Shown here piece after piece: positions 54,306 to 60,643 of a DNA stretch of 64,000 nucleotides. The first letter of the stretch is position 1; the number at the start of each line of letters is the position of its first letter. Made by a program: the position numbers and the translations under genes. This DNA comes from Candidatus Anstonellales archaeon. Its GTDB lineage: Archaea; Micrarchaeota; Micrarchaeia; Anstonellales; J096. The notes beneath the pieces were generated by a model that worked only from the letters and a program-made list of their open reading frames with translations, made no database searches and had not been told where the DNA came from. The stretch spans positions 253,880 to 317,879 of the forward strand of contig JAWAFD010000001.1 in assembly GCA_038890745.1 (NCBI GenBank), given 5' to 3'.

Positions 54306-54313
54306 CCAGAAAT

Positions 54314-54347
54314 TACTATCGCCCGATAGTTACTATCGCCCGATAGT
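54314..54347. repeat. Tandem 2x17-bp palindrome (TACTATCGCCCGATAGT)2, left copy
   Basis: Identical to 55446-55479; each unit is the dyad ACTATCG-CC-CGATAGT. Confidence 0.97.
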
Positions 54348-55445: not shown

Positions 55446-55479
55446 TACTATCGCCCGATAGTTACTATCGCCCGATAGT
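55446..55479. repeat. Tandem 2x17-bp palindrome (TACTATCGCCCGATAGT)2, right copy
   Basis: Identical to 54314-54347; abuts a TATA-like element of the ATPase gene. Confidence 0.97.
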
Positions 55480-55548
55480 TATATCCGTCGTCTTTAGGAA
55501 GGATAATTTTAAAAATGGATTTTATAATAATCATCCAAGGTGATACTT

Positions 55549-57361: not shown

Positions 57362-57598
57362 GCCGGGATGGCGGAATCCGGTAACGCGTACGCCTGGAGC
57401 AAATTTCCTTATGGAAAGCGTATGCCCGCAAGGGCTCGTGGGTTCAAAACCAAACCCAGGGGGAAGTTTCCCCCTAGGTTCCAGGTCTCCTCCTTAACCC
57501 CCTCATTTTTGCTCGTATAAGATAGGGGGGTGGAAGAGGCAGGGGGTCTTAGAAATGCTTAAGTACCCCCTGGTCTGGTGGATATCCCACTCCCGGCG
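57362..57598 (+). tRNA. tRNA-Ser(GGA) with two introns: about 17 nt in the anticodon loop (57400-57416) and 136 nt at 59/60 (57449-57584)
   Basis: GCCGGGA/TCCCGGC-G acceptor, TACGC/GCGTA anticodon stem, long variable arm GCCC-GCAA-GGGC, GTGGG-TTCAAA|…|T-CCCAC; BHB TTCA/TGGA with CCA/TGG outer helix; usual position before rps13. Confidence 0.9.
57505..57576 (-). repeat. Element A copy (antisense) inside the tRNA-Ser T-loop intron
   Basis: Reverse complement of the 73-bp unit at 60306-60524; about 65/73 identical by manual alignment. Confidence 0.93.
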
Positions 57599-59209: not shown

Positions 59210-59797
59210 ATGAAAGTTGAGATTGTAAAGAATACACCGGAAAGGGTTGAGCTTGTCTTTGAAGACATTCCTTACTATATTGCAAACATCATACGCAGAT
59301 ACTGCATTTCCGGGGTTCCTGTTTATGCCATAGATTCGGTTGTTTTCTACCAGAACAATTCTTCTTTTTTTGATGAGTACATCGCTCATAGAATAGGTAT
59401 GATTCCGATAAGAACACCGAAGGGTTCTCCTGCTGAATCCAATGTTGGGTTTTACTTAGATGCCACAGGTCCAAAAAAGGTTTATTCCCAAGAATTAAAA
59501 AGCACTGATAAAGAAATTGTTGTCGCTGTTGAAAACATCCCGATTGTTAAGCTGGCTGAAGGCCAGAGTATAAGGCTGGAAGGAAAATTGAAAAAAGGTA
59601 TTGGTAGGAATCACATGAAATTCCAATCCGGCATTGCTTCCTATGAGATAGTGGATGATAAAAGAATAAATTTTTTCTGCGAAAGTTTATACCATATGGA
59701 CGCAGGCGATGTTGTGAAAAGGGCGATTGATGAGATAATCCATGATTTGGATTCCCTTGAAAAAGAAATAGAAAAAGCAACAAAAAAGGCAAAATAA
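59210..59797 (+). CDS. rpoD: DNA-directed RNA polymerase subunit D (Rpo3), lacking the Fe-S insert
   Basis: ANIIRR…VPVYAID, NNSSFFDEYIAHRIGMIP, IPIVKL. Confidence 0.95.
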   Translation: MKVEIVKNTPERVELVFEDIPYYIANIIRRYCISGVPVYAIDSVVFYQNNSSFFDEYIAHRIGMIPIRTPKGSPAESNVGFYLDATGPKKVYSQELKSTDKEIVVAVENIPIVKLAEGQSIRLEGKLKKGIGRNHMKFQSGIASYEIVDDKRINFFCESLYHMDAGDVVKRAIDEIIHDLDSLEKEIEKATKKAK

Positions 59798-59815: not shown

Positions 59816-59886
59816 TTTTTTCTCATTCTCTATACTAATGTTTGCAGGGGTAGCCAAGCGGTCAAAGGCGCAGGGTTTAGGAATAA

Positions 59887-60000
59887 GGGCACCTAACCCT
59901 ATACTAACCCCGTGCCCTTATCAACCCCTTCCGCCTTTTGGTGGAGGGTAGATGGGACGGCGGTTGGGCACCTAACCATTTACTAACCCCGTGCCCTTAT
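59887..60000 (+). repeat. 35-bp direct repeats (59887-59921, 59966-60000) flanking a 44-bp hairpin inside Leu intron 1
   Basis: GGGCACCTAACCCTATACTAACCCCGTGCCCTTAT vs GGGCACCTAACCATTTACTAACCCCGTGCCCTTAT (33/35). Confidence 0.93.
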
Positions 60001-60075
60001 GAAAATACCCTGTCCCTTAGTGGGTTCGTGGGTTCAAAAGCCCAGGGGGGCTTTAACTCTTTATCATCCCCCCCC

Positions 60076-60238
60076 TGATGCGGTGAAACAACCCAAAGGG
60101 CTTCGGTGCGACCCAACCCTCCTAAACTTTTGGGTCGCACTTGTTTCACCGCATCACTGATGCGATGAAACAACCCAAAGGGCTTCGGTGCGACCCAACC
60201 CTCCTAAACTTTTGGGTCGCACTTGTTTCGCCGCATCA
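60076..60238. mobile_element. Element B, two tandem 81-bp MITE/REP-like copies (60076-60156, 60158-60238) in Leu intron 2
   Basis: 16-bp terminal inverted repeats TGATGCGGTGAAACAA/TTGTTTCACCGCATCA and internal 11-bp stem GTGCGACCCAA/TTGGGTCGCAC; mobility is inferred. Confidence 0.7.
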
Positions 60239-60305
60239 CGCTTCCACCCCATATCTGTTTAGGATGGTTTGGAGGGTGGTTTGGCTGAAAATCCCATCCC
60301 CTGCA

Positions 60306-60562
60306 TTAGACCAGGGGGTACTTAAGCTTATTCTCAGACCCCCTGCCTCTTCCACCCCCTATCTTATCTAAGCAAAAGTTAGACCAGGGGGTACTTAAGC
60401 TTATTCTCAGACCCCCTGCCTCTTCCACCCCCTATCTTATCTAAGCAAAAATTAGACCAGGGGGTACTTAAGCTTATTCTCAGACCCCCTGCCTCTTCCA
60501 CCCCCTATCTTATCTAAGCAAAAATTAGACCAGGGGGTACTTTAACTTATTCTCAGACCCCC
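60306..60562 (+). repeat. Element A tandem array: 3 full 73-bp units plus a partial one, starting immediately after tRNA-Leu
   Basis: Units start at 60306, 60379, 60452 and 60525; each has hairpin CAGGGGGT…ACCCCCTG. Confidence 0.97.
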
Positions 60563-60643
60563 TGATGCGATGAAACAACCCAAAGGGCTTTGGTGCGACC
60601 CAACCCACCTAAACTTCTGGGTCGCACTTGTTTCGCCGCATCA
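60563..60643. mobile_element. Element B, third copy, inserted in the fourth element A unit
   Basis: Near-identical to 60158-60238; follows CAGACCCCC of element A. Confidence 0.7.

Follow-up and report, generated by a model that had tools for sequence, protein, structure and literature searches.

How a transfer RNA gene comes to consist mostly of intron is the question raised by tRNA-Leu(TAG) of a Candidatus Anstonellales archaeon, a gene of 462 nt of which 378 nt (82%) belong to two introns of 125 and 253 nt. The gene lies in a window of 64,000 nt, the whole stretch of DNA analysed here, that corresponds to positions 253880-317879 of contig 1 of the genome (G000; 989,524 bases in 5 contigs, 93.8% complete). 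Judged from its sequence, the gene exemplifies a repeat system that extends through the genome: it appears to behave as an ordinary gene with bulge-helix-bulge (BHB) introns and to differ in the size of these introns and in their nested, trailer-shared mosaic structure. Both introns and a 375-nt 3' trailer are built of modules common to other tRNA loci, which explains the length of the introns and had been missed by the original prediction, made from the letters of the window.

Joining of the three exons in silico (Table 1) resulted in an 84-nt class II tRNA-Leu(tag) that ARAGORN folded into a canonical cloverleaf once both introns had been removed, in agreement with the original prediction, whose coordinates, intron lengths, intron share and anticodon were all correct. 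As it had also expected, standard finders overlook the gene. In its unspliced form no call was made by ARAGORN with the intron option off or on, the score in Rfam remained below the gathering score and a genome search with RF00005 at E<=10 did not recover the gene. A second Leu(TAG) gene, whose existence the prediction had left to be checked, was not found among the 44 tRNA genes detected, making this the sole Leu(TAG) gene of the genome. The exons differ at 7 of 84 sites from those of the intronless orthologue in G002, a genome of the same genus. The TTTAAA hexamer upstream of the gene is a putative promoter element. The locus is a real and probably functional gene.

The 59/60 intron is bounded by a strict BHB (hBHBh') in which TTCA at 60033-60036 is paired with TGAA at 60286-60289 and GCC with GGC, with two 3-nt bulges, just as predicted; the T stem has 5 bp. 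The 10-bp outer helix proposed for the 37/38 junction was likewise recovered, but this BHB was classed as relaxed because just 3 of the 4 central pairs form, A35 being opposite G. The observed pairing was matched by shuffled introns in 11 of 200,000 trials for the 59/60 intron (intron 2) and in 1 of 200,000 for the 37/38 intron (intron 1). A 375-aa EndA encoded in the genome matches the epsilon2 enzyme of ARMAN-2 (4fz2) at E=2e-88 over residues 6-374, and an RtcB gene was recognised by sequence. This match over the whole length of EndA suggests a place for the organism in Micrarchaeota (DPANN). The ARMAN-2 enzyme is described as cutting both 37/38 and relaxed 59/60 substrates (PMC3239211). From the junctions and the presence of EndA and RtcB we infer that both Leu(TAG) introns are spliced. 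A second EndA-like protein of 147 aa is encoded at L014:1339-1782 (G000:C1 near 152350).

Intron 1 is a small hairpin intron that has been lengthened by a 79-nt unit. It is locally 97-98% identical to the 204-nt intron of Leu(TAA), which holds one extra unit, and relatives have members of the same family among their Cys, iMet and Thr(CGT) introns. Intron 2 consists of a 90-nt scaffold (37-nt head and 53-nt tail) enclosing two 81-nt palindromes, referred to here as module P, for which 15 matches were obtained in the genome. The trailer is 375 nt in all and is built largely of a 73-nt unit with 35 matches in the genome and none behind the G002 orthologue. The scaffold head can be aligned to the trailer units, and both to intron and trailer sequences of sister species. 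The tandem periods of 79, 82 and 73 nt differ from the lengths of whole introns. An intron-encoded open reading frame (ORF) was rejected, as the longest open stretch in the introns is 55 codons, and no match to a group I or group II catalytic core was obtained for either intron in Rfam.

Table 1. Features of the tRNA-Leu(TAG) locus and its surroundings; positions are those of the window.
Feature	Position	Strand	Remarks
Exon 1, positions 1-37	59844..59881	+	same sequence as intronless G002 orthologue
37/38 intron (intron 1)	59882..60006	+	125 nt, relaxed BHB
38-nt hairpin heads of intron 1, two copies, period 79	59887-59924, 59966-60003	+	flank second hairpin 59921-59965
Exon 2, positions 38-59 including variable arm	60007..60038	+	ARAGORN and own spliced alignment
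59/60 intron (intron 2)	60039..60291	+	253 nt; 90% global identity to 247-nt Arg(TCT) intron
Scaffold head, G-run/C-run hairpin	60039..60075	+	homologous to trailer units (family D4)
Module P copy 1	60076..60156	+	81 nt, 16-bp terminal inverted repeat
Module P copy 2	60158..60238	+	period 82; tandem number rests on assembly
Scaffold tail, C-rich/G-rich hairpin and BHB 3' strand	60239..60291	+	96-98% to Leu(GAG) and Ser(GCT) intron tails
Exon 3, positions 60-73, CCA not encoded	60292..60305	+	same sequence as Leu(TAA) 3' exon
3' trailer, 3.6 tandem copies of 73-nt hairpin-plus-linker unit	60305..60564	+	begins 2 nt past discriminator
Module P copy 3	60563..60643	+	within last trailer unit
TATA-like TTTAAA	59810..59815	+	~30 nt upstream of tRNA-Leu(TAG); identical hexamer precedes G002 orthologue
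rpoD (RNA polymerase subunit D)	59210..59797	+	Pfam PF01000/PF01193; closes S13-S4-S11-rpoD cluster; synteny marker for orthologous locus
tRNA-Ser(GGA), unannotated, before S13	57362..57598	+	introns 17 nt (37/38) and 136 nt (59/60); missed by ARAGORN and Rfam
Inverted 73-nt trailer unit copy in Ser(GGA) 59/60 intron	57507..57576	-	90% identity

The genome-wide set of tRNA genes was compiled from 35 calls of a spliced-alignment finder, 8 hand-placed genes and Ala(CGC), and all 44 were accepted by ARAGORN once spliced. Introns interrupt 37 of them (84%) and number 47 in total with a median of 51 nt; one includes a scaffold gap, and the boundaries of two D-loop introns are uncertain because they did not pass the BHB check. 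The spliced-alignment search of this 93.8%-complete genome yielded no gene for Pro(GGG) or Arg(CCG). With introns allowed, ARAGORN called 20 of the 44 loci, several of them wrongly, and missed Leu(TAG). The claim that a 253-nt intron is exceptional holds against the 11-129 nt given for archaeal tRNA introns in a 2014 review (PMC4090602), a reviewed range beyond which longer published introns may exist, but not within the organism's own genome, where 13 of 47 introns are longer than 129 nt, the maximum being the 407 nt of the 59/60 intron of Trp(CCA). This Trp(CCA) gene spans 567 nt (G000:C4:58113-58679, minus strand), and its 87-nt 37/38 intron, which lacks a C box, matches the Ser(TGA) trailer module in reverse orientation. 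A tRNA-Ile with anticodon TAT is encoded at G000:C1:103867-104018 (plus strand), likewise in G001 and G002 and, as reported, in ARMAN-2.

Sharing of intron sequence between genes is extensive. Among the 46 gap-free introns 24 have a partner of at least 80% identity in another tRNA gene, compared to 0 in 5 shuffles. Six modules used as queries gave 66 matches, of which 27 lie in tRNA introns, 29 in 3' flanks of tRNA genes, 4 in a single 5' flank and 6 close to contig ends where no tRNA is visible. Zones comprising tRNA introns and the sequence within 600 nt of tRNA genes make up 5.8% of the genome and 24% of its non-ORF bases, and hold 27 and 33, respectively, of the 66 matches. The sense orientation accounts for 21 of 27 intron matches and 23 of 29 trailer matches, the remaining 6 intron matches being reversed. 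At 5 further tRNA genes the units start 2-3 nt past the discriminator. Confinement of the modules to tRNA loci is strong, not total, as the 5'-flank array starts directly after the stop codon of a protein gene and a relative of P is located at the end of another. A 107-nt TA-flanked palindrome of the P family lies at G000:C2:135073-135179 at the 3' end of a gene, which we take to be aminotransferase-like, and lengthens its frame.

Comparison with 40 related genomes placed the modules at the level of the genus. Matches to intron interiors came from the two same-genus genomes (G001 and G002), and other genera matched the exons. The syntenic Leu(TAG) of G002 has neither intron nor trailer; in G001 the search for the syntenic locus gave no rpoD match. 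Leu(TAG) is intronless in G002 and in five further members of the family (G004, G007, G011, G013 and G016), and set against these orthologues the two introns may be a recent gain. In the family outgroups G007, G008 and G006 tRNA matches spanning more than 90 nt numbered 4 of 43, 8 of 44 and 5 of 43, respectively. Intron position differs in 14 of 49 gene comparisons with the two sister species, which hold the same module families at other tRNA genes, and the hairpin layout is retained across the three species.

The relatives also display stepwise series for both introns. Intron 1 extends from a 43-nt monomer (iMet of G002) through dimers of 120-125 nt (Leu(TAG) here, iMet in L168 and Thr in L174) to the 204-nt trimer of Leu(TAA), and a 239-nt Thr(CGT) version is a dimer with an added palindrome. 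For intron 2 a 97-nt homologue free of P is found in Thr(CGT) of G001, one P in Ser(GCT), one inverted P in Leu(GAG) and two P in Leu(TAG) and Arg(TCT). Position T65 forms a wobble in Leu(TAG) and a normal pair in Leu(TAA), a weak marker that agrees with conversion from Leu(TAA). That the T arm was converted together with intron 2 was rejected because the family outgroups already carry the same T arm. Three trailers contain copies of the T arm of the host gene itself, first inverted and then direct. Behind an intronless tRNA-Arg(GCG) at L045:622-960 of G002 the 3' end of this gene is repeated in tandem, each copy preceded by an inverted T-arm copy. Two of these dead 3'-end copies contain a 59/60 intron whose splicing cannot be selected, which points to events at the DNA level. 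At G000:C2:227690-227874 the 3' half of tRNA-Ser(TGA) and its flanking modules have been copied to a distant non-tRNA site.

In public collections the exact P pattern gave 0 metagenome matches. A degenerate P hairpin gave 15 genome-collection matches; 3 Micrarchaeota records, possibly of genomes already searched, were not counted as independent, and the other 12, all bacterial, had no similarity to the modules, nor had 2 viral matches obtained besides. The intron-1 pattern gave at least 119 metagenome matches, and 2 were true family members among the 80 whose adjoining DNA was examined.

These results are best explained, with reasonable though far from full confidence, by a working tRNA-Leu(UAG) gene that carries two BHB introns as passengers, their modules having been copied at the DNA level among tRNA loci. 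The epsilon2-type EndA would cut both introns and RtcB would join the exons. The introns would have no message of their own and would derive from a genus-level family of GC-rich hairpin modules, copied from one tRNA locus to another through ectopic recombination and template switching where short sequences are shared (the T arm, the anticodon arm and G/C runs) and then duplicated in tandem and nested. Copies would survive where processing removes them, that is within a BHB stem or behind the discriminator base, and the module load would be tolerated because splicing removes it. The gene anatomy, the sharing of modules, their occurrence in both orientations, the presence/absence and copy-number series and the EndA and RtcB genes are established; splicing, DNA-level copying without a dedicated enzyme and survival through selection are what we propose on these grounds. 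Copying at the DNA level is favoured because modules occur reversed, because the tandem periods are not those of whole introns and because half of Ser(TGA) was copied elsewhere, as well as by the trailers that recopy the host T arm both ways and the introns in dead Arg(GCG) 3' copies.

Several observations weigh against this explanation. Loss in G002 may apply instead of gain because the T arm of G002 differs from that of the family. The 16-bp terminal repeats of module P, together with a related TA-flanked subfamily that also occurs at the end of a protein gene, are more suggestive of an element moved by a transposase, and trailer units begin within 1-2 nt of the start of homologous introns, which would fit an RNA route too. 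The 37/38 BHB contains one mismatch. In ViennaRNA the probability of the 59/60 BHB is ~0 in the full precursor, forcing both BHBs and stems costs 10-13 kcal/mol, and the BHB cost of the 59/60 intron alone is 6.1 kcal/mol, the third highest of 26. In this model the start of the intron can pair back with the T arm, which prevents the 59/60 BHB from forming at equilibrium. The test discriminates poorly however, since most short 59/60 introns also score low, the BHB probability at 37 C being below 0.2 for 23 of the 26 59/60 introns of the genome. The fold-back pairing was seen in 16 of 26 introns compared to 19% in shuffles and is only suggestive because these introns are kin.

The reality of the locus was evaluated using Logan contigs from 4 DNA runs (hot-spring metagenomes) of one study, possibly the source of the assembly. 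All four exon-intron junctions were covered, and the junction pieces of run X1 had 0 differences at a depth of 50-68 compared to 68 in the single-copy flank. No piece among the Logan contigs listed spans both P copies (period 82), and their number of two therefore rests on the assembly. A run-X4 contig with the intron-2 scaffold but no module P, and an X3 contig, probably represent the Leu(GAG) paralogue, as suggested by where the match starts. Two contigs skipping intron 1 were rejected; that of run X2, with just 22 letters on one side, is probably from another organism and that of run X1 is another Leu gene. At L002:1170-1660 of G001 a Cys 5' exon is joined to an iMet 3' exon over an intron-1-family array and a gap, a probable mis-join.

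Alternatives to copying by recombination differ in how much of this evidence they accommodate. An assembly artefact or pseudogene is very improbable. Several contig ends and scaffold gaps do sit within repeat arrays, the G001 scaffold fuses exons of two genes and both P copies lack a bridging contig, but the four junctions were all recovered in separately assembled contigs, the exons are intact in a gene without a second copy and every one of the 44 genes was accepted after splicing. It is equally hard to credit that the introns encode functional RNAs, either box C/D guides or structured regulators, or that the load serves as an adaptive shield against integrating viruses, an idea in print as cited in PMC3293823. 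The introns fold very stably (z -9) and the hairpin layout is maintained in three species, yet sense and antisense strands fold alike (-118.0 vs -121.5 and -49.8 vs -49.5 for the two introns) and the modules come and go between species. The parallel with guide-RNA introns that the original prediction implied did not stand up: neither intron has a C/D box layout or an Rfam family, no match came near the gathering score (8 weak matches), C and D boxes are both absent from intron 1, and the sole C-like motif of intron 2 is a variant site in the stem of P, 123 nt from the next CTGA. No antisense element to rRNA or tRNA was found in a search whose Met-intron control likewise gave none.

The main rival to enzyme-free copying is a transposase acting in trans, the modules being non-autonomous mobile elements, like miniature inverted-repeat transposable elements (MITEs) or REPINs, aimed at the T loop and tRNA 3' end and hidden by splicing. 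We regard this as unlikely, though it is kept alive by the 16-bp terminal inverted repeats of P, which show compensatory changes between G000 and G002 copies, and by the TA-flanked P-related subfamily of 105-107 nt. The units that begin 2-3 nt past the discriminator at 5 genes besides Leu(TAG), the introns in non-functional T-arm copies and the duplication of tRNA 3' ends (22-47 nt) around ~90-nt units are accommodated as well. An enzyme was however not found in the 5-13 genomes searched, which are 75-97% complete: Y1 transposase (PF01797, RAYT), tyrosine integrase (PF00589; searched in G000, G001, G002, G007 and G008) and GIY-YIG above cut-off were each found in 0 of 5 genomes, and IS630 DDE_3 (PF13358) and resolvase in 0 of 13. 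The result for PF00589 leaves no Xer homologue detected with this query. P has no consistent target duplication at the Leu(TAG) locus, TA flanks occurring only in the related subfamily, and the TnpB genes of G002, G006 and G022 have no sequence in common with the modules. In a quite unlikely RNA route, RtcB would ligate excised introns or trailers into other cut pre-tRNAs, and the products, after concatenation and reverse transcription, would return to the genome by recombination. Whole introns do reappear at identical positions and with identical ends, the 5' ends of trailers and introns coincide, the sense orientation predominates and the genome encodes EndA and RtcB. Against it stand the reversed modules within introns, the tandem periods, the absence of an encoded CCA in Leu(TAG) and RVT_1 above cut-off in 0 of 5 genomes.

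Further candidates were rejected. A TnpB element as mover has ends unrelated to the modules. For a casposase-like route, Cas1 lies beside the CRISPR array of G000 and was found in 0 of 2 sister genomes. For an integrative element at the tRNA 3' end, there is no second 3' end behind Leu(TAG), and PF00589 was found in 0 of 5 genomes. Elsewhere, at Ala(CGC), Thr(GGT) and Ser(TGA), tRNA 3' ends are duplicated. Miniature IS605-type remnants (ends of TnpB element L094), unrelated to the hairpin modules, are present near tRNA genes at L040:1625-1782 and L003:921-986 of G002. The CRISPR locus (G000:C3:24772-35524) holds an array with Cas1, Cas2-like and type III-like genes, Cas1 having been profile-scanned and the other labels given by a look at the sequence. 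Outside these subjects, about six convergent gene pairs lie in tandem at G000:C5:13088-22059, their products having N-termini in common and C-termini that vary, and an identical 17-nt tandem repeat flanks a 360-aa ATPase-like gene at 54313-54347 and 55446-55485 of the window.

Bacterial REP/BIME/REPIN mosaics and TA-flanked MITEs (ERIC, RUP, Correia) are short palindromes of hairpin-plus-linker type that occur in both orientations and in lineage-specific bursts. The palindrome mosaics described here are similar in occurring in both orientations, but are almost confined to tRNA loci and lie within spliced introns, and neither RAYT/Y1 nor IS630 transposase was found. The introns of ARMAN-2 (Ca. 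Micrarchaeum acidiphilum) are alike in EndA type, in the 37/38 and 59/60 positions and in combining strict and relaxed motifs (PMC3239211). Interrupted genes make up 56% of its tRNA genes (PMC3239211) compared to 37 of 44 (84%) here, and unlike in ARMAN-2 as described there, the introns here are as long as 253 and 407 nt and form mosaics of trailer-shared repeats. In Thermoproteales near-identical introns reportedly occur in different tRNA genes, 28.3% of 272 at >=80%, a value obtained by a different method than the 24 of 46 here; sharing in the present genome differs in including sub-intron modules that are nested, tandem and inverted and also lie outside introns. The tRNA-Trp and tRNA-Met introns that nest box C/D guides have a long 37/38 intron in common with Leu(TAG), as reviewed (PMC4090602), whereas the Leu(TAG) introns lack the box layout and owe their length to repeats, and the Trp 37/38 intron here is a repeat module. 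Asgard tRNA genes are likewise mostly interrupted, missed by annotators and subject to repeated gains, but with a median intron length of 22-23 nt, little copying between genes (1.5%) and the arrival route left open (PMC11291895; 10.64898/2026.10.13.758758). A literature search, to which subscription papers were largely out of reach, returned no description of repeat-built archaeal tRNA introns.

The arrival of archaeal tRNA introns is stated to be open (10.64898/2026.10.13.758758) and the mechanism of intron transposition in Thermoproteales to be unknown (PMC4090602). The genus examined here displays donors, empty sites, filled sites and copy-number steps together, and thereby bears on gain, swapping and enlargement of tRNA introns. 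Its sequences suggest that BHB introns can reach a length of two to three times the reviewed maximum, and annotators lose over half of the tRNA set of such a genome (20 of 44 loci called by ARAGORN). The ends of the introns look like T-arm copies, one inverted and one direct, and TTCGAA of the T arm is self-complementary. More tentatively, and in our judgement doubtful, the modules could be a hitherto undescribed, tRNA-targeted class of selfish DNA of DPANN archaea. Such an element would find its target in the T arm and 3' end of tRNA genes and would either carry a BHB with it or form one there, giving rise to spliceable introns de novo. If true, archaea would have their own equivalent of introner elements, and the arrival of tRNA introns would have a concrete explanation.
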